Below, piece by piece: positions 4,621-64,000 of a DNA stretch of 64,000 nt. How positions within the stretch are numbered: the first letter of the stretch is position 1; every line of letters starts with the position of its first letter. The position numbers and the translations under genes are program-made. The stretch spans positions 1,922,001 to 1,986,000 of the forward strand of contig OZ024762.1 in NCBI GenBank assembly GCA_964016885.1, read 5' to 3'. This DNA comes from Eledone cirrhosa. Its lineage: Eukaryota. The notes below the pieces were generated by a model. It saw nothing but the letters and a program-made list of their open reading frames with translations, made no database searches and had not been told where the DNA came from.

Positions 4621-5662
4621 ACTCTACAGTATATACCTGGGTATGCAGTACCCTAGGTTAGCTCTATAATGTTTATACATATATGGTAAATACTCATTCG
4701 AGGGGTCAGCAATTCTGACAGGGGTCTATTACCAGCTTTATGTTTATGGGGCCTACTCCCTCCTTTGGAGGTCCTATCCTTTACATCCAGCCTGGGCCTA
4801 CAACCAGCCATTCTACTAAAGGTCTGTAGAAAGCCGATCACCTTTGAATTGATATGAGCATTTTAGACATAACAGGCAGGTATCTAGCTGGGATGAGAGG
4901 AGAGGGGGTCTGTTTATTTATATTTATATATTTTTGTGTTCATATCAAGGTAAAAAGAGTTCTCTATACTGTGGGGAGGATGGTGAAGGATGGAGGGGGA
5001 CAGTGAAGGTGTGAGGGAAAGGAAAATAGTTGTCTTTCTCTTTTTTTTGTCGTCTTTTAAGATGCCATTGCAGCTAGAGGATGGGGAAGGAAAAACTTAA
5101 GTAAACACGTTATTTTAAATTAATCTACCCTTTATTATTTGTGATATGAATGGCGGCTTAGTCAGACAGCCTCCCTTGGTAAACATGTCGTGTTGGAGCA
5201 GCGGAAATGTTAGGTATAAATATAATATATACTCACATCTCCACCCAATCTCACACATACACACGAACAGTCGTACACACATTCACACACATGCTCAGTC
5301 TCTCTCTCTCTCTCTCACACATGCAGTCACACATACACATGCTTATACACAGTGTTACATACACATACTTATACAGACAGTCTCACAATCATATACTTAT
5401 ACAGACAGTCCCACATACACATACTTATACACACAGTCTCACATACACATTCTTATACAGTCTCACATACTTATACAGACAGTCTCACATACACATATAT
5501 AGTAACATAGACAAACACATGCACACACACACACACATGTGTGTGCATCTATATATATATATATAAATCCTGGTTTCAATCGGAGGTAACCACAGTTAGT
5601 AAGGTACTCAATACATTAGTAGAGTGTAAACATCAAGTTTAATATAGAAATGGTTTCTACAG

Positions 5663-5718
<56 letters not shown>

Positions 5719-8690: not shown

Positions 8691-9382
8691 TACATTTAAA
8701 CATTTTGTTGAGTTTGGAAAAATAACATTGGTAGTCATGGCAGTGGTAGTCATGGTAGCGGTGAGACGTCAACTGCGTCACTGCCGCCAACTCTTAAATG
8801 TGATTTAGACAAAAAAGAAGTTTATAAGTAGTTGACATGTTTATTTCCGAAACAAAAAAAAACAAAAAAAGGAGAGAGAGGGGTGGAGGACGGGGTAGAG
8901 AGAGGGTGGAAGAGATAGAGGGAGGGAGAGAGAAAGGCGGAGTGAGAGGGGGAGAAAGAGAGAGATAGGTAGAGAGAAAGAGGTAAAGTGAGAGGGGGAG
9001 AAAAAGGGAGAGAGAAGTTGGAACATTGGTATGGACTATTGCGATCCAAAATGATACAGAATGGAATAAATAAATAAATAATTTAGATTGCATATACAAA
9101 AAAAAAATGAAAAAAGTTAAAAAAATAAAACAAGTGAATCATTATTGACAAATGACAATATCATATTGATTAGGACAATATCAATATTTCAATAGAGAAA
9201 AAATCAATATCTGTAACATGTAAAGCTATTTCTTAATCTTTTGACATGAAAAGTCTTATCTGGGAGTTTCTTTGGGCAGATTTAAATATAGTTTTGGTTT
9301 AGTATAGCAGTCAGTTTCCTATATATATATATATATACACACATACATATATATATATACACACATATATATATATGTATAT

Positions 9383-9420
<38 letters not shown>

Positions 9421-9653
9421 ACACATATATATATATACGTATATATACATTTAAATACCTATATATATATATACATTTATATACCGATATATATATATTT
9501 GTGTGTGTATATATATATATATATCTATATATATATACATATATATATATAGATATATAAATATATGTATATATATATATATTGTTATACTTGGGGAGGG
9601 TCACATTGTTGTAATAATATTGCTTTCACCCTTAACGGGATCTTCAGAAACTA

Positions 9654-9703
<50 letters not shown>

Positions 9704-9907
9704 TATATAATGGGCTTCCACGCAGTTTCTGTCTACCAAATTTCATTCACAAGGCATTGGTCAACCTGAGGGTATATATATAGCAGAAGACTCATGCTCA
9801 AGATGCTGCCAGCACCACCACCACGGCGCTGTATGTTTAAACCCCAGAACCACATGGTTTTGAAGCGAACCCCTTCACCACACAGACATGCCTGCAAATA
9901 GGTTTAA

Positions 9908-10128
9908 CCCTTTAGCATTTAAACTGGCTGTATCTGGCCTTAATTCTCTCACCTTTTTTCTGTTCAAACCGGCTGAAACCAGCTGCTCATACTGATGTTA
10001 TGGTATTGTTCTTAAAATACATAATATCAAAATCTCGTAGATTTGATATCATGTGAGATATTTATGTAAGATAAAGCCTTTACCATGAAAATATAATATA
10101 AATATAGAGTAACGGAAATGCTAAAGGG
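9908..10128 (-). mobile_element. Complete ~220-bp piggyBac-type MITE just 3' of the receptor stop codon
   Basis: TTAA TSDs at 9904-9907 and 10129-10132; TIRs CCCTTTAGCATTT / AAATGCTAAAGGG. Confidence 0.85.
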
Positions 10129-10150
10129 TTAATGTCTGGTTTAATTAGTT

Positions 10151-11315
10151 TTAATTACAATTGTCATTATTATTTGACCCTAATTGCATTTCACAGTAAA
10201 CGTTTGAATTGTATAGGTCTTCGTTAAAGTCTGTTGGTGAGGGTGGGGGAGGGAAGATGAAGTTGCCGTTTGAAGCTCTCCTCGGAGTTTTGTAATGGTT
10301 TGGTTCCGGGTAGAAGCTCCCTTGGGGGACGTTGCCATTCTCTAGATTCAGATCATAGGTGGCGGCGCTATTGGTGGGGTTGTTGTTGGGATTGTCGACA
10401 GTGGTTTTGGCAGTGTTGGTGTTGGTGGTGTTGGTGGTGTTGGTGGTGTTGGTGTTGGTGGTGTTGGTGTTGGTGTTGGTGGTGTCTTTCTCAGAAGCAG
10501 GGATATTTTCTCCGATAACATAATTATCGTTTTGGAATGTCGGAGAAGGGAGAAAACTTTGGTCCTCTGACACTGTGTCGTAGATCGGATGAATAACTGG
10601 GGTCTTGTAATATGTTCCTCCTACTACTCCTACTCCCCTTTCTACACCACCTCCCCCTCCCCTTTCTACTCCTCCTCCCCCTCGTCTTAAAGACCTACAA
10701 TCATAGTTGTCGACAGCCATTGGTGAAACCGGTGTTGGAGTGTTGTAGGAGGAGTTGGAATAATACTCTTCCTTGTCCTCGTCGGACATGAATGATTCCA
10801 GAGGAGGAGGGAGAAACTCCAGAATCTCGTCTTCGGCCGTTAGTTCCGATGAAAAGCTGGCACTGTTCTTGGTTCTCCTCAGCGTGTCTTGCTCAAAGGT
10901 AGGCGCAGAGAATGTTATGTTCGCGTAATGGCTACCACCTGGAAGTATATCACCTTCATGATGACACGAAGAAGTCTCGTATCTCGGTTTCTTAGTTGTT
11001 GCTGCCGTCTTCCTACTCAACGTACCAAATACCTCCTGGCTTGGTTCTTCCGGAATGTTCTCCATTTCAAACTCATTTAAATAATGGTTACTTAGGTCAC
11101 CATTTTCGGTGCCATTTCCAAAAGATTTTGGCGGGTTTTTTTTCTTTGTCACTGCCTGTAGAGTGCTATATGTTGAAACTCTGAGTGGACTTCGACGAAT
11201 GGAAATGTAGTGATCTTCATTATAGTCATAGGGGTCTTGTTTGTTCTCTAGTTTGGAAGGATTAAAAACAGACGATTTTTGAAGCTGCGATAATCTTCTC
11301 CTCTTCCTTTTCACT
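10151..11315 (-). CDS. Receptor gene, coding exon 6 (last): 387-aa disordered cytoplasmic tail with many Tyr motifs
   Basis: Acceptor ttttcag|A at 11315 (phase 2, matches the TM exon); basic stop-transfer RVKRKRRR; open to TAA at 10151; motifs STYSTL, SHYANI, YNTP, YKTP x2, IYDTV, YCEM, FPPPP. Confidence 0.9.
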
Positions 11316-11438
11316 CTGAAAATATAAAGAAAAAATAATAAAATGGCCATGATAAAAAATAATAACAACAAAAAAACTAATACGATTTAAAAAAAAAAAT
11401 TAACTCCAACATAATTTTATATAAGAACCTTACATTAA

Positions 11439-16610: not shown

Positions 16611-17078
16611 ACACTGGTGTGTATGATTGTGTATAAAAGATTATATTAATAAAATTATATTAATAAAATTTATAATGGTATTAGAATGAAATAGTATGGT
16701 AAAATATTAAATGTTAAGTGTTAATTGAACAAGTACAGTCAAGTTTTCAATTTTCAACTTTCAGAGTTAAAAATTGCAAACTTGACTGTCACCACAGAAT
16801 ATGAACCTAAAGATTGCAAAAGCATGAAACTACTTGTTGCTTCAGGTTCATATTCTGTGTGACAGTCAAGTTTGCAATTTTCAACAGTTGAAAATTGCAA
16901 ACTTGACTGTCACCACATATTATGATCCTGAAGATTGCAAAAGCATGAAAGTACTTGTTCAATTAACACTTAACATTTAATATTCTACCATACTATTTCA
17001 TTCTAATACCATTATAAATTTTAAAGGATTGTAAATAAAACGAGTAAATCAGACAAAGTTGGAATTCCTTTTATTAAT
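16611..17078. mobile_element. Rearranged copy of the family-A hammerhead palindrome
   Basis: Same arms as 34561-34937 with an internal duplication/inversion; plus-strand hammerhead with intact core at 16923-16961, degenerate copy at 16802-16838. Confidence 0.8.
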
Positions 17079-17242
17079 ATATATATGCAAGCAAGACAAC
17101 CACTCTTGCCTCAAGTGGGAAAACTCCCGTCCAAACCCATGCAAGCGTGGAAGATGGACGTTAAACGACGATGATGATGATGATGATGATATATATAGTG
17201 ACAAAACATAAGTCAATTGCATGAACTCATAATCCTTTATTT

Positions 17243-18833: not shown

Positions 18834-18897
<64 letters not shown>

Positions 18898-18900
18898 AAC

Positions 18901-19000
18901 GAGTAGGACCCCAACGGTTGAGCTCAAGCCATTTCGACGGCTAATTCTGGACTGAATTAGCCGTCGAAACGTCTTGAGCTCAGCCGTCGGGGTCCTACTC
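18901..19000. repeat. 100-bp palindrome with a hammerhead 3' remnant (GAAACGTC)
   Basis: gagtaggacccc..cgg.tgagctcaag...cgacggctaattc / gaattagccgtcg...cttgagctca.ccg..ggggtcctactc; partial copy at 39308-39348. Confidence 0.7.
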
Positions 19001-19588
19001 TTTCCTATTTCCCACTCTACTACCCTAGGTATTGAGTACTTTGGTGCGTTATGGACCATCTGGTTCCTTACCACATTTCCTTCGTTATATATATATATAT
19101 ACTGCCATGGACTGGCGTCCTGTCCAGGGGAGAATCTTGTACTCTCAGTCGCTTCACGCCATCAAACCGGGATAAGCACCGGCCAAATGAGCCTTCTGGC
19201 TTAAGACAGACTTTAGACTTTTAGATATATATATACACACATATATATATATTAGGTGGCCCTTATTTCTTAACTTTAGTTAGCTCCCACTCCCCTATCT
19301 TGTTCCAATTAACAGAAACCCAATCTTTGCAAAATTTTACCTCAATCAGACAACTGCAAGGCGACCCTCATCAACTGTGAAATTTTGAACTTTTCACCCG
19401 GAAAGTCATTTTTTCAGATAAAACTTTTTCCTTTGCCTTTCCATCAGAATTACCTAACATTAATCCCGGTGTTTGCATAGCTACGACTTCCTAAAACCGT
19501 GTTTCTTTAGAAATACGAAATTTCTATACATATTTGTATAAAGCTATGCTTGAAGTGAAATCTTATTTCTTATATATATTTATATAAT

Positions 19589-22657: not shown

Positions 22658-22979
22658 TACATGTATGTATATATGCATATATATATATATCCATATATAC
22701 ATATACATACATACATGTATATATGCATATATATATATATATCGTTATATTTGGGGAGGGTCATATTTGCGTAATATTGCCAGAATTAATAACAGAACAC
22801 ACTCACTGTTTGGTTGGTTTTCGCTTCTCGCTGTCTTTTATATATATATATCTGCGATCTAACTTACTCGGTCCTCAATGGATATATATCCATATATACA
22901 TATATATATATATCCATATATACATATACATACATACATGTACATAAATATATATATATATATATATATAAGTGGTTAT

Positions 22980-23038
22980 ACAACAGTTAGTTCACCATAC
23001 CGAGATCAATTGTTCTCGGTATGGTGAACGAACTGTTG
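22980..23038. repeat. Collapsed palindrome of hammerhead family F
   Basis: caacagttagttcaccataccgaga-tcaattgt-tctcggtatggtgaacgaactgttg; flank 23040-23117 is the reverse complement of 39931-40010. Confidence 0.7.
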
Positions 23039-23113
23039 TGTTACCACTTCTACCTAACTCGTCCCATGGACTGAGTGCTCTACCACTACGGATATTACCT
23101 TCCAGCGTTCTAC

Positions 23114-23162
<49 letters not shown>

Positions 23163-34170: not shown

Positions 34171-34673
34171 CATATATATGTGTGTATATATACATATATA
34201 TATATGCGTGTATGTGTGTGTGTATATATATATATATATATGTAAACATTAGAAAGTTGAGGGTCACTCGATATTATGTAAGAGTGACTCATGGTGGGCT
34301 TTGTTTCTGGAGTGGTGAATGTTTCGATGAGTTTATAGTAAATGAGAATATGACTAATATTGTTGTTGTCGGTGTTGTCATAAAACATGAAATATATACT
34401 GTAACCAACACAAAGAAAACCTATGCAATATATAATACAAACACACACACGTATGTATGTATACATCTATATATATATAAATATATGTGTATATATAAAT
34501 ATATATATATAGAGATAAATATACACGGGTGTGTATGATTGTGTATAGAAGATTATATTAATAAGAGGAATTCCAACTTTGTCTGATTTACTCGTTTTAT
34601 TTACAATCCTTTAAAATTTATAATGGTATTATAATGAAATAGTATGGTAGAATATTAAATGTTAAGTGTTAAT

Positions 34674-34712
34674 TGAACAAGTACTTTCATGCTTTCGCAA
34701 TCTTCAGGTTCA
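34674..34712 (-). ncRNA. Type I hammerhead ribozyme, family A
   Basis: Minus strand: TGAAC-CTGAAGA-TTGCgaaaGCAT-GAAA-GTAC-TT-GTTCA; 5-bp stem I, GAAA tetraloop in stem II, palindromic stem III AGTACT. Confidence 0.8.
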
Positions 34713-34785
34713 TATTCTGTGGTGACAGTCAAGTTTGCAATTTTCAACAGTTGAAAATTGCAAACTTGACTGTCACCACAGAATA

Positions 34786-34824
34786 TGATCCTGAAGATTG
34801 CAAAAGCATGAAAGTACTTGTTCA
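34786..34824 (+). ncRNA. Type I hammerhead ribozyme, family A (mirror copy)
   Basis: TGATC-CTGAAGA-TTGCaaaaGCAT-GAAA-GTAC-TT-GTTCA. Confidence 0.7.
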
Positions 34825-34932
34825 ATTAACACTTAACATTTAATATTCTACCATACTATTTCATTATAATACCATTATAAATTTTAAAGGATTGTAAATA
34901 AAACGAGTAAATCAGACAAAGTTGGAATTCCT

Positions 34933-34974
<42 letters not shown>

Positions 34975-38250: not shown

Positions 38251-39448
38251 CTTTTTCTGGCTCAGAAGACTAGAACGAAAATCTGGCTTGGAATCCGTGC
38301 TTTCATTGTTATAGACTTGGAATCATCGAAACTGCTGGAGATCCATTTAGTCATTTATTTTACAGTATGAATCAATTGTCTTTTGTTTAAAATTCTAACA
38401 TCCTACACACAGTTCTAAATTGGAATCTCTATTATAGAGTTCAGTTTTCATAATAAACAATAGAGGATCTTTTTTGCTTGTTCTGTGATTTAATAACATT
38501 ACTCCAGTACAGAGAAACTAAGTGTTCTTTGTATATATATAATCTGACACATCCTACATGATGTGCTCTCAATTGCAAACACTGTTGTAGAATTCAGTTT
38601 TAATATTAAAAATACATTTATTTCTCTAATTATTCCCATCCATTATTCTAGTACTTTTGTTGTCATTGTCTGTAGTTTTTTACAGACCCAACATTCTACC
38701 AGAAATTTGTGGTGAGGTGAGCCTGGGTTTTTAGCACCCTAGGCTAGCTCTACAATGTGTACCTGGGTTTCTAGCACCCTAGGCTAGCTCTACAATGTGT
38801 ACCTGGGTATTTAACACCGTAGGTTAGGAGGGGTGGCTGCGTTTTTTGAATTATGACAACAGTTTGCTCTATTCTCAAATGTGTGACCACCACCACCACC
38901 ACCACCACCACCCTCTCTCTTTCCCACACACCTCTCCCATCCATCGACCCCCCTCCCCTCCTCTCTTCCATGTATGACCACCTCCCTATCCACCTCCCCC
39001 ATCCTCCGCTCCATACATCCTCCCCCACCAGTCGACTGCCCTACCCCACCCCACCATCATGTCACCGATCTTCCATCTTCCTCTCCTCTCCTCACTGAAA
39101 CACAGGATGTCCAGGTTTTAATGTATGTCAGATGAAATTTTAAATGGCAACCATTTCAATTAACCTCTCACCTACACTCACCCTCCTCCACTCAGTCAAC
39201 CTCACACTCTCCCCCCCCCACTCAGTTTGTCACCCACCCTCACTCAGTTAATCTCACTCTTTCTCAACCATCCCCCGCTTAATCTAAATATATATATAGG
39301 AAAAGACAGGACCCCGACGGCTGAGCTCCGGCCGTTTTGACAGCTAAACCTACTCTACTATTGAGTACTCTGGTACTATGGTCCACCTGGTATCTTACCA
39401 CACTCTCTTTGTTATATATATATATATCTAGAGTGGGTCAAATACCCG

Positions 39449-39886: not shown

Positions 39887-39931
<45 letters not shown>

Positions 39932-40025
39932 GTAGAACACTGGAGCGTTATATCCGTAGTGGTAGAGCACTCAGTCCATGGTCCGAGTTTGGTAGAAGTA
40001 GTTCCACAACAGTTAGTTCACCATT

Positions 40026-40068
40026 ACCGAGAACAATTGTTTCACCTTATTCGGATCATCAGCTCGGT
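40026..40068 (-). ncRNA. Type I hammerhead ribozyme, family F, in an inverted repeat (mirror remnant on + at 40100-40136)
   Basis: Minus strand: ACCGAG-CTGATGA-TCCgaataaGGT-GAAA-CAATTG-TT-CTCGGT. Confidence 0.78.
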
Positions 40069-40258
40069 CTAAATGAAGTTTCCATACAACTTCATTTAGC
40101 TGATGATCCAACTAAGGTGAAACAATTGTTTTCGGTAACAATTGCGGAACCAGTTTTCCAAGAGATGTCAACATGAATGGACCTGTTATTTTTATCTAAA
40201 GACATTTTTTTAAAATTCCACGCCACCTGTCCCCTCAATCTATCTTATTTCTCATTCT

Positions 40259-40806: not shown

Positions 40807-41070
40807 TATATTTGGTACTTATAAATGGCCTCAGATTACTAACACATACAGACAACTGTGTGCCTCATACTTCTCACCTATATGTTTTTAAATGCTTAAT
40901 TGTACACGACATCCTGCAACCACAGACACACATGTATCTATATATACACACACACATAGACATACACACACATAGACATACAGATACACACACCAACCCA
41001 TATATATATATATATATGTATATATGTGTGTGTGTGTGTGTGTATGTATATATATATATAATATAGAAAT

Positions 41071-41121
41071 GGCTTCTACAGGACTAGAACTGTTTCATTC
41101 GGGAGAAATCATCAGGAAGCC
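41071..41121 (-). ncRNA. Type I hammerhead ribozyme, family B (conventional stem III), inside palindrome 41060-41182
   Basis: Minus strand: GGCTTC-CTGATGA-TTTCtcccGAAT-GAAA-CAG ttctagtc CTG-TA-GAAGCC; GUA cleavage triplet. Confidence 0.8.
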
Positions 41122-41645
41122 GACTCCTGATGATTTCTCCCGAATGAAACTGTTCTAGTCCTGTAGAAGCCATTTCTATATTAAATATTTATACTCTGCT
41201 ATGCATTGAGTACCTTACTGTCGTTACCCCTGATTGAACCTGGGATAAACTTATATATATATAGAGAGAGAGAGAGAGACAGATGGATAGATATAGATAT
41301 ATATAAACATGCATACACACAGACAGACAGACAGACAGACATATATAAACGCCCACTGTCACATGCCCCCTCAATACCCTCCTCTCCCCATACCCCACCC
41401 CCTCATATCATACCACCTCCACTCCACCCACAGCCGGCACAGAGTAGAGTGTGAATAAACTGTGACATACAGAGGCACGTGCAGGTAACATACACCAACA
41501 GACACACACACACACATATATACACATACACACACACACATATACATATATATATATACATACACACACACATATATGCACACGTATACACACACACACA
41601 CATATATATGCACATTTATACACACATACATACACACACATGTGC

Positions 41646-50785: not shown

Positions 50786-51081
50786 AATAAACCTAAGAGG
50801 AAAAACTTAAAAATGGTCATCGCGGACCACTCTGACTGGTCAGGTGGGCCGGATTGTGGCCCGTGGGCCGCCTGCTGCACACCCCTGGTTCTGGTCTGGT
50901 GGGCCGGATTGTGGCCCGCAGGCCGCCTGCTGCACACCCCTGGTTCTGGTCTGGTGGGCCGGATTGTGGCCCGTGGGCCGCCTGCTGCACACCCCTGGTT
51001 CTGGTCTGGTGGGCCGGATTGTGGCCCGTGGGCCGCCTGCTGCACACCCCTGGTTCTGGTCTGGTGGGCCGGATTGTGGCC
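50786..51081 (+). mobile_element. hAT-type right terminus tandemly repeated (55-bp unit, ~4.5 copies)
   Basis: GGGCCGGATTGTGGCCCGTGGGCCGCCTGCTGCACACCCCTG resembles hAT/Charlie ends (GGCCCGCGGGCC...ACCCCTG). Confidence 0.65.
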
Positions 51082-51094
51082 ACGCCTGTATCAC

Positions 51095-54000
51095 TACTAA
51101 TAGACACTCTACTAATAGTATTACCACAACAACAACAGATACTACTGATACTATTACAACAACAACAGATACTACTAATACTATTACAACTACAACAGAT
51201 ACTACTGATACTATTACAACAACAACAGATACTACTAATACTATTACAACTACAACAGATACTACTGATACTATTACAACAACAACAGATACTACTAATA
51301 CTATTACAACTACAACAGATACTACTGATACTATTACAACAACAGATACTACTAATACTATTACAACAACAACAGATACTACTGATACTATTACAACAAC
51401 AGATACTACTAATACTATTACAACAACAACAGATACTACTAATACTATTACAACAACAGATACTACTAATACTATTACAACAACAACAGATACTACTGAT
51501 ACTATTACAACAACAGATACTACTAATACTATTACAACAACAGATACTACTAATACTATTACAACAACAGATACTACTAATACTATTACAACAACAACAG
51601 ATACTACTAATACTATTACAACAACAACAGATACTACTAATACTATTACAACAACAGATACTACTAATACTATTACAACAACAACAGATACTACTAATAC
51701 TATTACAACAACAACAGATACTACTAATACTATTACAACAACAGATACTACTAATACTATTACAACAACAACAGATACTACTAATACTATTACAACAACA
51801 ACAGATACTACTAATACTATTACAACAACAACAGATACTACTAATACTATTACAACAACAACAGATACTACTAATACTATTACAACAACAGATACTACTA
51901 ATACTATTACAACAACAACAGATACTACTAATACTATTACAACAACAACAGATACTACTAATACTATTACAACAACAACAGATACTACTAATACTATTAC
52001 AACAACAACAGATACTACTAATACTATTACAACAACAACAGATACTACTAATACTATTACAACAACAGATACTACTAATACTATTACAACAACAACAGAT
52101 ACTACTAATACTATTACAACAACAACAGATACTACTAATACTATTACAACAACAGATACTACTAATACTATTACAACAACAACAGATACTACTAATACTA
52201 TTACAACAACAACAGATACTACTAATACTATTACAACAACAGATACTACTAATACTATTACAACAACAACAGATACTACTAATACTATTACAACAACAAC
52301 AGATACTACTAATACTATTACAACAACAACAGATACTACTAATACTATTACAACAACAACAGATACTACTAATACTATTACAACAACAACAGATACTACT
52401 AATACTATTACAACAACAACAGATACTACTAATACTATTACAACAACAGATACTACTAATACTATTACAACAACAACAGATACTACTAATACTATTACAA
52501 CAACAACAGATACTACTAATACTATTACAACAACAGATACTACTAATACTATTACAACAACAACAGATACTACTAATACTATTACAACAACAACAGATAC
52601 TACTAATACTATTACAACAACAGATACTACTAATACTATTACAACAACAACAGATACTACTAATACTATTACAACAACAACAGATACTACTAATACTATT
52701 ACAACAACAACAGATACTACTAATACTATTACAACAACAACAGATACTACTAATACTATTACAACAACAACAGATACTACTAATACTATTACAACAACAA
52801 CAGATACTACTAATACTATTACAACAACAACAGATACTACTAATACTATTACAACAACAACAGATACTACTAATACTATTACAACAACAGATACTACTAA
52901 TACTATTACAACAACAACAGATACTACTAATACTATTACAACAACAGATACTACTAATACTATTACAACAACAGATACTACTAATACTATTACAACAACA
53001 GATACTACTAATACTATTACAACAACAGATACTACTAATACTATTACAACAACAACAGATACTACTAATACTATTACAACAACAGATACTACTAATACTA
53101 TTACAACAACAGATACTACTAATACTATTACAACAACAACAGATACTACTAATACTATTACAACAACAACAGATACTACTAATACTATTACAACAACAGA
53201 TACTACTAATACTATTACAACAACAGATACTACTAATACTATTACAACAACAACAGATACTACTAATACTATTACAACAACAACAGATACTACTAATACT
53301 ATTACAACAACAACAGATACTACTAATACTATTACAACAACAACAGATACTACTAATACTATTACAACAACAACAGATACTACTGATACTATTACAACAA
53401 CAGATACTACTAATACTATTACAACAACAACAGATACTACTAATACTATTACAACAACAGATACTACTAATACTATTACAACAACAGATACTACTAATAC
53501 TATTACAACAACAGATACTACTAATACTATTACAACAACAGATACTACTAATACTATTACAACAACAGATACTACTAATACTATTACAACAACAGATACT
53601 ACTAATACTATTACAACAACAACAGATACTACTAATACTATTACAACAACAGATACTACTAATACTATTACAACAACAACAGATACTACTAATACTATTA
53701 CAACAACAACAGATACTACTAATACTATTACAACAACAACAGATACTACTAATACTATTACAACAACAACAGATACTACTAATACTATTACAACAACAAC
53801 AGATACTACTGATACTATTACAACAACAGATACTACTGATACTATTACAACAACAACAGATACTACTAATACTATTACAACAACAACAGATACTACTGAT
53901 ACAACAATAGTTAGTGCTACTCAAAAGCAACAGTAACAACAACAACTATAAGAACTGTAACAACAACAGTAACAACAGCTATAAGAACAACAACAACAGT

Positions 54001-55295: not shown

Positions 55296-55609
55296 TTAAA
55301 CTTTAATCTGTACTAATAATATTTGCTCTACAAGTTTATATATACTCATATATATATATATATATATATATACAATCTTCAGATTTTGGTCTTTGTATTT
55401 ATTATTATATATCATCACCATTTAAGATCCATTTTTCACACTGGCATGGGTTAGAGGGGTCATCCACATTATGAGATGGTCAGATTGGCCACACCAGCCC
55501 TTGCTCAGACTATAAATTTGGCTGGCATTTTTACAGCTGGTTGCCCTTCCTAACACCAAGAACATATATGTTGTTGGTGTTAGGAAGGGCATCCAGCTGT
55601 AAAAATGCT

Positions 55610-55870
55610 GGCCAAATTATATATATATTATATATATAAACTTCCAAATTATATATATATTATATATATAAACTTCCAAATTATATATATATTATATATA
55701 TATATCAACTTCCAAATTATATATATATATATATATATATCAACTTCCAAATTATATATATATATATATATCAACTTCCAAATTATATATATATATATAT
55801 ATCAACTTCCAAATTATATATATATTATATATATCAACTTCCAAATTATATATATATATATATATCAATT
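55610..55870. repeat. Tandem CAACTTCCAAATT(AT)n units, about 8 copies
   Basis: Direct periodicity. Confidence 0.8.
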
Positions 55871-57120: not shown

Positions 57121-57967
57121 TTATTATTAATATTATGTATTTTTTCTGGTTAATGTTAATTTTATTAGTATTAATACTTGTGTGGTTTGGAATACCACAC
57201 TGAATAAATTATATACAAGTCTTTCTCTCTCACTATATATATATATATATACACATACATATAACTCATACATACATGTGTGTGTATGTATATATATATA
57301 TGTGTGCGTGTGCATACTTACATTTATGTATCAGCTGTGCTAGGGCGAGAAATATAATTCTTATTTTATATATATATATATATATATATACATATTTATA
57401 TACATATACAGGGTACCCCAAAAAGGTATACACACTTTGGTTACCTGTACAAGCAATATTTATTAGAATGCACAACCTTTGTGTATACATATTTTTAGGA
57501 CACATCTATATATTTATATACACATACGCACACATAAAGAGAAGAGGGGAAAAAAAAAAGGAAAGAGAGAAGGGAAAAAAACCAAAAAGAAACACACAGT
57601 CCACATTGTAAAGTGGCCATGTAGGTAACACGGTAAAAAGCTCCCAGTCCACACTGTAAATGTGGTTGGTGTTAAGAAGGGCATCCAACCGTAGAAAACC
57701 TGCCAGGTAGTCCCATACGTGCAAGACACAGCCACCGCCCAACCAATCTTGCCTCAAAATGGGACAACTCCTATCTAACCCATGCTAGCATGGAAGATAG
57801 ACGTTAAACGATGATGACGATGATGACGATGATAGATGCGTGTGTGTTTATCCCGGGATCAATCGGGAGTAACCACAGTAAGTAAGGTACTCAATACATA
57901 GCAGGGTATAAGATATAGAAATGGCTTTTACAGGACTAGAACTGTTTCATTCAAAGGAAATCATCAG

Positions 57968-58019
57968 GGCTTTCCTGATGATTTCCTTTGAATGAAACAG
58001 TTCTAGTCCTGTAGAAGCC
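57968..58019 (+). ncRNA. Hammerhead family B inside palindrome 57913-58029
   Basis: GGCTTTC-CTGATGA-TTTCctttGAAT-GAAA-CAG ttctagtc CTG-TA-GAAGCC; stem II loop differs from the 41071 copy while the stem is kept. Confidence 0.72.
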
Positions 58020-58572
58020 ATTTCTATATATATATATATATTTATTAAAATAACATATGTAGGGTGAAAGCAGCAATTCTTTGCTTAAACTTTTAATAAA
58101 TATTTGCTCTAGGGTTCTTATATATTTGATATATATTTATCCTTATCTCTTTAGATTTAAGTCTTTACATTTATTATTATTACTATTATATATATATATA
58201 CACACACACACACGCAAGTGTGTATAAATATATATGGGTGTGTATATAAATATATATATATATAAATATCTGTATGTAGGTGTGCGTATAGCATAGCTTT
58301 CTGCTGTTTGGCGATGACTTATTTGAAGGTCAGATTTTTCTCAAGCTTTCATTCATAACTTCTGTTCATACAACCTGTTTGGTATAATAGGGGCTAATAA
58401 TTTATGGGCCCATGCTAAACCCAATTAAATTCTTCTCATATAACATTATAAAGGGAAAACAAAGCTAAAACTAAATATTTTCTTGAATTAAATCTATTCA
58501 AGGTTATTATATTGTTAACTGTTAAGAGAGGAATTTGGCAATCTAGAGTAACCTGCCTGATGGAGTTGGTAC

Positions 58573-61760: not shown

Positions 61761-62318
61761 TTTATATATGTTTTTATATATGTTTATCATCATCATTTAA
61801 CACCCATTTTTCACACTAGCATGGGTTATATATATATACATTTCTGTAAAAACCCTGGTCAAATTTACAGTCCCATCAGAGCCAATCCTGGCCAGACTTG
61901 TCTCTCAATGCAGACGATCCATCCAAGCATGATAAAATAGAAGTTAAACGGTGATGATATATATATATATGTGTCATCATTAACGTCCATCTTCCATGCT
62001 AGCATGGGTTAGACGGGAATTGTCCCACTTGAGGCAAGATTAGTCGTGTGACCGTGTCTCGCTCGTATAGGACTGTCTGGTAGGTTTTCTACAGCTGGAT
62101 GCCCTCCCTAACACCAACCACATTTACAGTGTGTGCTGGGTGATTTTTACCGTGTTACCTACACGACCCCTTTACAGTGTGGACTGGATGTTCTGTGGTA
62201 CCAACATAACTTTATGTGTAGATATATGTATGTGTGTATGTAGATATATGTATGTGTATGTAGATAAATGTATGTGTGTATGTAGATTATATATACGTAC
62301 ATATGTACCCTTCCTTAC

Positions 62319-63685
62319 CTTATTTAATAACACCCCTGATCCACCATACACCTCCTCCCCCTCCACATCATCATCATACAGTTTTCGCTTTATCCCCCTC
62401 ATCTTTACACTACCATCATCATCATCATCATCATCATTAGTTTTATTTATAGTTTTCTTTCTACAATTTTTTTTCAGACTTTGAGTGGGTGTGGTGGTGG
62501 TGGTAGTAGTAGTAACAGTGGTGTTACAGGTACTAGTAGTAGTAATAGTAGTAGTAGTAGTAGCAGTACTAAGGGATGTAGGGAAAATTGCAACAGCTTG
62601 CAATGACCTGGTGGTAAAATGCACCGGTGAATGCACATAGCCTAATGTGTCGTTTAGATTTAAAGGCTGCGGGCTGTCCCCTTTAGAAGAGAGTTTGTGA
62701 GCAGTTTTCTCAGGTGTCTTTATACTGAGGATGTCTAATGTTTGGTCATGATGATGATAATGTTGTTGTTGTTGTTGTTGTGAGGGAGTTATCGCAGAAT
62801 GTGACGGTGGCTGTGACGATGTCGTCGCTGCAGACTCTTCGTAACATCTAGTCCGGTTGTAGCGCAGAGTCGATAGGATGTCGATTGCCACTTGTTCATC
62901 GTCTTCGCTAAACTGGGCCCCTTTTGAGGCGTCGCTGCCGACATTTTCAACGGTGTCTCCTCCCGTTTCATCGGCAGCAGGTTGCGGTGCAGCTGAATTG
63001 TCTTTCGATAGAGTCTCGGGCCGGTTACCCTGCAGCGGAGAGAAATCACACAATGCCTTCTTTGCAGGTGGTGCTCCAAAATGGGGTGCCACAAATGTCG
63101 CACTAGAAATTTGTCCAATTCTGGACCCAAGGATACACGACGTCATTTTAGTGTTTGCAGTTACAGGCACAGAACTGGCGCCGTTTCCTCCACACCCAGC
63201 TTCTTTCTTATCGTCTCTTAATCTGGTTAAATTCCAAGGAACACTACCATCAAGACCATTCTCCAAGACCTCTTTATTTCCATCATTCTGATGGACAGAA
63301 TCATAACCTTGCTCTCTGCTGGAAGAAATATCAGAATTTCTCAATTTCGAAAATTCCTGACTTGAAGAATTCCTGTCTGAAAGTGAATCTGGAGTTTTCT
63401 CCGTTGATGTTTTTGAAGAGGGCTCCTTGTCCGAGTTATTAACCGGAACAGATTCTAACTTGGACATGCAATTTAGAACATGTTCCGTGAGAATCTGTGT
63501 ACCAATAAAACTACTCAGTTGGTCACGAACATTTTTGGCATTCATCAAGTAACTTGATATTTTGTTGGTACGCTGGTTTGTCATCTTCAAGAGAATATTA
63601 CTGGTATTAGGCTTCATTTCAATCAAAAGAGAATTATCGGAGGCTTCCACTAGAACAATACTCTTGTCTTCCTTCAGGTGCGAAG
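62319..63685 (-). CDS. NPAT: Large internal exon of gene 2: low-complexity nuclear protein, NPAT-like (tentative)
   Basis: Acceptor tttttctttaacag|CT at 63685, donor AAG|gtaagg at 62319; 1367 nt open; SP/TP sites (KTPEK, HSP, TPTQ), PPAKK and a KRKLY NLS/RxL-like motif. The exon is well supported; the identity is less certain. Confidence 0.55.
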
Positions 63686-64000
63686 CTGTTAAAGAAAAAT
63701 CAAAGATCAATATTAACCTACAAGTAAACACATACAAAAGTTTGTAGAGGCTGGCCAAGATACTCTCATGGAATGACCAAAGAAACAGTGTAGTTATTAA
63801 TAAGAAGAGTTGAAATTAATGTATGCAAGATTTCACAGCTCTAGCATCACTCCTTCATAGTCAGCCTACCCATGTACATACATATGAGAGTAGACTGATA
63901 ATTTCATAGGTCAAAAACGTTCATAGGCTGACCAAGATACACTGGACAGATTTGTAGCTCAGATATTAGAGAGTCACTCCAGGTAGAGCCGTTACTTCTC

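Follow-up and report, generated by a model that had tools for sequence, protein, structure and literature searches.

Two short palindromes, at 41 and 58 kb of the 64-kb stretch of DNA analysed here (the window), carry a hammerhead ribozyme motif within inverted arms, and they raise the question of how such a sequence came to be paired head to head, and whether the ribozyme's own cut had any part in it. The initial annotation, which placed both palindromes correctly, proposed that the second arm had been copied from the first near a ribozyme-defined RNA end. In our reading, each palindrome arose when the 3' end of an endonuclease-positive (EN+) Penelope-like element (PLE) inserted once, its arms being generated by twin priming on uncut RNA and not by cleavage; we assign this reading a probability of roughly 0.7.

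Layout of the two palindromes

The window is AT-rich, with a GC content of 0.23–0.44 per 2 kb, and is crowded with microsatellites, as in animal genomes; its repeats appear cephalopod-like. Its unrelated features include another repeat with 39-bp inverted arms and a 26-nt spacer (55515-55618), a 3-kb array of 27/30-bp units (50978-53936) that is open in several frames, one of them Thr-rich, and two long non-repetitive frames on the minus strand (10154-11386, 411 aa; 62175-63815, 547 aa) which are probably host exons. Neither frame matched a Pfam family above the cut-off, and the 547-aa frame had no usable match in the protein atlas.

At 41 kb, the tail-less arm (41060..41125, minus strand), whose outer end runs into (TA)n, contains a complete type I hammerhead motif of 51 nt (41071..41121, minus strand) with a predicted cut at 41077/41076. 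The tail-bearing arm is on the plus strand, its shared part spanning 41125..41183 with C3 at 41127, and is followed by a 67-nt tail (41184..41250, plus strand), a one-sided 3' extension that passes into (TA)n. At 58 kb, the 67-nt tail (57846..57912, minus strand) adjoins the tail-bearing arm (57913..57968, minus strand, C3 at 57967), and this in turn adjoins the tail-less arm (57968..58029, plus strand, C3 at 57975, predicted cut at 58013/58014), which again enters (TA)n. Both palindromes are thus asymmetric, with the tail on one arm only; the initial annotation had left it out of the unit at both loci. The 136-nt palindrome stretch folds as a single hairpin (z = -22 against 200 shuffles). A third copy of this sequence, which we call family B, is present at 5567..5667 (minus strand); it is non-inverted and 5'-truncated, its 5' end falling within loop III, some 10 nt short of the cut, and has a homologous tail (5567-5641) and (TA)n on both sides. 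Across the three copies, (TA)n adjoins five of the six outer ends, the 58-kb locus having it on one flank only, and no target-site duplication was readable at the family B insertions.

The arms of each locus overlap by one base, 41125 and 57968 respectively, and begin at different points of the element. The tail-less arms begin 10 nt (41 kb) and 7 nt (58 kb) before C3 and the tail-bearing arms 2 nt and 1 nt before it, the tail-less arm extending 6–8 element bases further in the 5' direction. At both loci the tail-less arm alone holds the 5' strand of stem I, which both tail-bearing arms lack. With all four arms starting 1–10 nt before C3, the fold-back point does lie just 5' of the catalytic core, as had been noted. 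The accompanying claim of one intact stem I per locus holds for the tail-less arm at 41 kb, and at 58 kb (57968-58019) only if a bulged U is allowed in the stem. The 8-nt spacer at 41 kb is element sequence, the same letters being found in loose ends before 41125 in sequencing runs X7, X1 and X4 (4, 225 and 136 contigs). From the junction, which lies on its 5' side, the predicted cut is 40–49 nt away.

Arm-to-arm and locus-to-locus comparison from C3 onward revealed one difference in 55 positions between the arms of the same locus, at each of the two loci, and four to six in 55 between loci. Four of the latter constitute loop II. At each locus the two arms have the same loop, TCCC at 41 kb and CTTT at 58 kb, confirming an earlier observation. 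The 41-kb tail-bearing arm has a private A>T at 41151 that disrupts stem III (the majority letter is A in all four runs), and the 58-kb tail-bearing arm has a G>A directly past the predicted cut at 57929/57928. In the reads, loop II is hypervariable, with C kept at 41140 in 26% of X16 reads and T at 41141 in 12%, and chance alone is therefore unlikely to have given matching loops at both loci (at most about 0.26 × 0.12, ~0.03, as a rough bound). To this extent the proposed common origin of the arms stands, as one source variant per locus; and as both the junctions and the loops differ, the two loci are separate inversion events. The further claim, that the second arm was copied from the first, is not supported: each arm holds element sequence absent from the other, the extra bases on the tail-less arm and the tail on its partner, so neither is a plain copy. 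Had a cDNA started in the tail folded back, the spacer would be on the tail-bearing arm, and a tail-less cDNA folding back would have had no tail to contribute; copying therefore fails to explain the asymmetry.

The hammerhead motif and its relatives in reads

The type I core, CUGANGA...GAAA...UH with stems I–III, is complete in the 41071-41121 arm. As first annotated on the minus strand, the 51-nt motif combines CUGAUGA and GAAA with a stem I of 6 bp, a stem III of 4 bp bearing an 8-nt loop III, and a GUA site. Stem II consists of 3 bp and is closed by a U.U mismatch in place of the G10.1-C11.1 pair. Predicted pair probabilities are 0.92–1.0 for stem I, 0.07–0.10 for stem II and 0.39–0.46 for stem III. 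A relaxed custom type I descriptor detected six motifs in the window whose stem I has at least 4 bp, where 60 dinucleotide shuffles gave 0.03 on average and 1 at most, and among the six only the 41115 arm had a 6-bp stem I. Rfam returned no hammerhead match at gathering score across the whole window; at E up to 10, the interval 40900-41400 gave 59 weak matches, mostly to generic hairpin models, with no hammerhead among them.

The 8-nt loop III has a central CUAG which permits two copies to pair (16-mer duplex at -12.8 kcal/mol, hairpin at -1.4 kcal/mol), and by analogy family B could encode a hammerhead able to switch between monomer and dimer. Self-pairing is unexceptional for the letters of this loop, with 12.5% of 840 permutations pairing equally well, and the dimer reading hence rests on that analogy. 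The monomer expected in the initial annotation is likewise a candidate form, in view of the modest stem III probabilities. In a transcript reading through both arms the pair probability of stem I is predicted to be 0.0, so palindromic copies are, on this model, probably inert as ribozymes; the hammerhead would be a passenger in them, masked in such transcripts.

Reads were matched to 41110-41256 at 80% likeness in four runs (X1, X4, X16 and X7), which yielded 11,330 contigs (X1), 9,391 contigs (X4), 9,020 reads (X16) and 122 contigs (X7). With three copies in 64 kb and 9,020–11,330 records in three of the four runs, family B is a dispersed multi-copy sequence. No change in the core or in stem II occurs among the 40 variants listed (there are 69 further variants). 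Stem I covaries: an X16 subfamily has AGAUUC/GAAUCU where the window has GGCUUC/GAAGCC, two compensatory double changes, and both strands are changed within the same reads, namely 52 reads of a 78-nt head-to-tail unit with 14 different starts. This unit is a retrozyme-like relative of family B with a whole hammerhead and the covaried stem I. The reads also contain head-to-tail units of ~70 nt without the core, one of them at a contig depth of 3293 in X1 (satellite-like).

Junctions and the origin of the inverted arms

Were the arms made at a ribozyme cut, ends should gather there. Read depth has no step at the predicted cut, neither in X16 (8213 at 41160-64, 7903 at 41165-69) nor in X1 (1.759 then 1.764 million), and the ends listed include no pile-up at that position. 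Among the 15 joints listed of 49, 12 connect opposite strands, with one end at 41125-41160 and the other at 41125-41205, positions that are approximate as up to 40 unlisted letters may sit inside a joint; the ends 41125, 41142 and 41152 coincide with private letters of the reference. Four of these 12 link an arm end at 41130-41144 to a piece whose first base is at 41184-41195, where the tail begins and where 41186-41195 is indel-rich; short tail-less arms are invisible to this analysis. A single listed joint, 41127/41167 (4 contigs, X1), has a piece starting no more than 2 nt from the cut, and the same sequence is also expected from inversion or from fold-back through stem I.

Inverted pairs with a one-sided extension also occur in other hammerhead-type families of the window and have the same anatomy as family B; the five head-to-head inserts described next come from three families. 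The family A pair (22970-23118) joins at 23009, within the palindrome of stem III, some +25 from the would-be C3 and a few nucleotides from the predicted family A cut. In the family D pair (18893-19087) the junction, at ~18956, is in the predicted stem II loop. A pair at 39931-40138 has its junction about -19 to -26 from C3, its arms differing by three substitutions and a 6-nt gap in 57 columns. The family C pair (34511-34935) joins at -42, in a palindrome at 34749, with the extension seen in one copy only, and a head-to-head insert at 16664-17080 comprises at least three pieces; these two family C loci, at 34.7 and 16.9 kb, have in common a central palindrome 42 nt before C3. Finally, at 39293-39413, in the same family as the 18893-19087 palindrome, a tail directly follows an inverted tail-less arm, with zero overlap and (TA)n on both sides; neither of the two pieces can have served as the template of the other. 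Junction offsets across the window thus extend from about -42 to +25 from C3, all within ~45 nt of the core, a clustering to be read in the light of the shortness of the inserts and of most having been found through the core motif. These offsets differ by family and by copy, and junctions do not track the cut.

Further hammerhead-core motifs were observed at 9647(-), 14696(-), 22495(-), 40264(+) and 54830(-), and U.U closure recurs with different stem II pairs at 9647, 16928, 34707/34791 and 40062/40100. The 9.6-kb insert emerges from (TA)n ~4 nt before C3. Another hammerhead family has three copies that start ~26 nt before C3 (17200-17320, 42323-42446 and 42654-42779), the latter two lying tail to tail with an upstream flank in common. 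The tails of family B (41191-41216) and family D (19013-19038) have in common a short motif with a predicted ACUC/GAGU hairpin, a candidate RT-binding stem-loop.

The proposal that the second arm was copied by fold-back at a ribozyme-made RNA end accounts for the near-identity of the arms within each locus, and could draw on the 41127/41167 joint, one of the 12 opposite-strand joints listed, and on the family A junction close to its cut. Against it, the joint is open to two readings, the family B junctions sit 5' of the cut at a distance of 40–49 nt, each arm lacks part of the other, the depth is level across the cut with no listed pile-up of ends, the junctions of the window scatter on both sides of C3, and PLEs lacking canonical hammerheads invert too, PMC8557442 describing the same inversions in Naiads despite absent canonical hammerheads. 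Moreover, each full arm spans the predicted cut, and the template RNA was thus likely uncut. We consider cleavage-directed fold-back very unlikely, and at the two family B loci it is largely refuted.

A palindrome that spreads as a unit, as a MITE-like foldback or non-autonomous palindromic element, or one that is an assembly artefact, is more improbable still. The central palindrome common to the two family C loci means that fixed inverted units may exist in this genome. In family B, however, junctions and loops differ between loci, the unit is asymmetric and a solo copy is present; independent runs contain opposite-strand joints at many offsets, and X1 contigs provide depth across 41110-41124.

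Among the candidate mechanisms for an arm pair made on uncut RNA we lean towards twin priming, at somewhat better than even odds. The element's endonuclease would cut both strands within (TA)n; one DNA end would prime cDNA at a far start site, the tail end at 41250, and the other at a near site around 41183, where UAUAU in the RNA can pair with the target, both cDNAs extending toward the 5' end of the RNA. Should the far cDNA halt at the near primer, an inverted arm plus tail alone would result; should it continue behind the near cDNA, a palindrome would form whose tail-less arm extends beyond its partner in the 5' direction, the arrangement at both family B loci (the evidence on which arm reaches further being from these two). 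The two cDNA ends would then be joined via minimal homology. The insert at 39293-39413 matches the simple product, an inverted tail-less arm and a tail. According to PMC11167929, a purified PLE protein, predicted to be a dimer, cuts and extends both target strands in vitro using sense RNA, two reverse transcription start sites bound the tail, and hammerhead cleavage is dispensable in vitro.

The model parallels that for L1 5' inversions (10.1101/2024.08.27.596794), in which two primers at the target break give an inverted 5' piece and either deletion or duplication of internal sequence accompanies the inversion. The second priming site in PLEs would differ from that of L1 in being apparently fixed, at the near start site, where L1's is spurious, and whole-arm overlap is common in PLE-type inserts by comparison with L1. 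In the literature searched, with partial coverage, we found neither a twin-priming model for PLE inversions nor junctions mapped against the hammerhead.

The same element may have been inverted in another way, in which the 3' end of an antisense transcript folds back on itself, reverse transcription proceeds from there to the tail, and the resulting hairpin is copied into the target. Self-priming of this type has been proposed for PLE head-to-head junctions (PMC3846280). Like twin priming it places the spacer on the tail-less arm, and the junctions of other families in natural hairpins (23009, ~18956 and 34749) would suit it. Yet the overlap is merely 1 nt at both family B junctions, the model does not predict the arrangement at 39293-39413, where the inverted arm adjoins a tail that begins just beyond the near end, and the in vitro system works on sense RNA (PMC11167929). 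We therefore judge antisense self-priming improbable, and retain twin priming.

A more speculative extension, which we regard as doubtful, is that the 5' edge of the hammerhead fold, and not the cut, sets the ends of PLE cDNAs, the sites that bound the tail being a programmed twin-priming pair. The ribozyme would then signal reverse transcription to stop or to hand over, or would mark the 5' end of the RNA. The positions of the four family B arm ends before C3 are consistent with this, as are the starts of other window families, which lie ~4, 26 and 42 nt 5' of C3. In the loose ends the consensus fades immediately 5' of stem I, with agreement of 0.40 and 0.45 (225 contigs in X1 and 136 in X4). 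Against it, a variable number of Ts in stem I would likewise blur that consensus, X7 contigs extend beyond this point in the upstream direction, the end of the solo copy is at +29, and arms of one locus are not independent. Should ends prove to gather at the fold's 5' edge, the ribozyme would have a role besides cutting; the function of hammerheads in EN+ PLEs and the origin of the inverted units are both called unclear in PMC8557442 and PMC11167929. Family B offers test material, as a high-copy family with near site, far site, fold and cut within 130 nt and loop II as a natural barcode, and junction mapping in it could separate twin priming, antisense self-priming and cleavage.

Comparison with known Penelope-like elements

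The palindromes are very probably 3' ends of an EN+ PLE. In each, a 5'-truncated copy faces its inverted neighbour head to head, one end only bears a tail and the target is AT-rich or (TA)n. This is the anatomy that PMC8557442 describes as typical of EN+ PLEs, which combine an inverted and 5'-truncated copy with a one-ended tail and insert into microsatellites (general head-to-head scheme in its Fig. 2). An inverted 5'-truncated copy at the 5' end of PLEs and (TA)n targets are described there and in PMC3846280, and hammerheads close to each other on opposite strands are described in Schistosoma (PMC4209133). Pfam matches to RT or GIY-YIG domains were found in none of the 150 frames screened, of 156 in the window, which gave one weak match to DUF4834 below the cut-off. 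Pattern scans for family B gave no match in prokaryote genomes; in metagenomes they gave none and then one locus (L001), whose flanks are unlike family B and which was discarded as a chance match.

Within the EN+ PLEs, family B is probably Hydra-clade-like, by analogy in ribozyme type, its position and the target alone. Examples of this clade are Penelope-1 to -18_HM, Hydra-1_aJap, Penelope-1_NV and Hydra-1_oBim (Craig et al. 2021, PMC8557442). Hydra-clade elements have a type I hammerhead ~100 nt from the 3' end and a (TA)n target, as does family B, and Penelope-13_HM has a similar 5'-truncated inverted copy. Of the 26 Hydra-clade rows in File S2 of that paper, 14 have the CUGANGAU...UGAA U.U closure seen in family B, the common form in the clade, and four have the ACAG/CUGU stem III of family B. 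Loop III, by contrast, spans 1–3 nt in every row, whereas that of family B spans 8 nt around a central CUAG, its length being the one unusual feature of the motif. The tail is longer, at 67 nt against 30–40 nt in the published PLEs covered there, and four family B motifs of 11–13 nt had no match in the supplement text of PMC8557442, in which line breaks could mask one. In the Poseidon element (PMC11167929) an ORF starts at the ribozyme; not so in family B, where both ATGs meet a stop within six codons.

The head-to-head pLTR units of Pen2a from Adineta vaga (PMC3846280) likewise place an inverted 5'-truncated copy beside a direct one, with a tail on one arm. Family B copies differ in being only 60–125 nt long, without an ORF, and in their junction overlap of 1 nt, compared with 15 bp or a long palindrome in Pen2a-type units. 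Metazoan non-LTR retrozymes (10.64898/2026.07.22.740005) are hammerhead units of type I that originate from PLE ends and do not code for protein. They form tandem arrays, unlike the inverted pairs and solo copies of the window, and the retrozyme-like point of family B is the 78-nt head-to-tail unit in the reads. The layout of the palindromes is thus already known for the EN+ PLE class, to which family B adds another instance.
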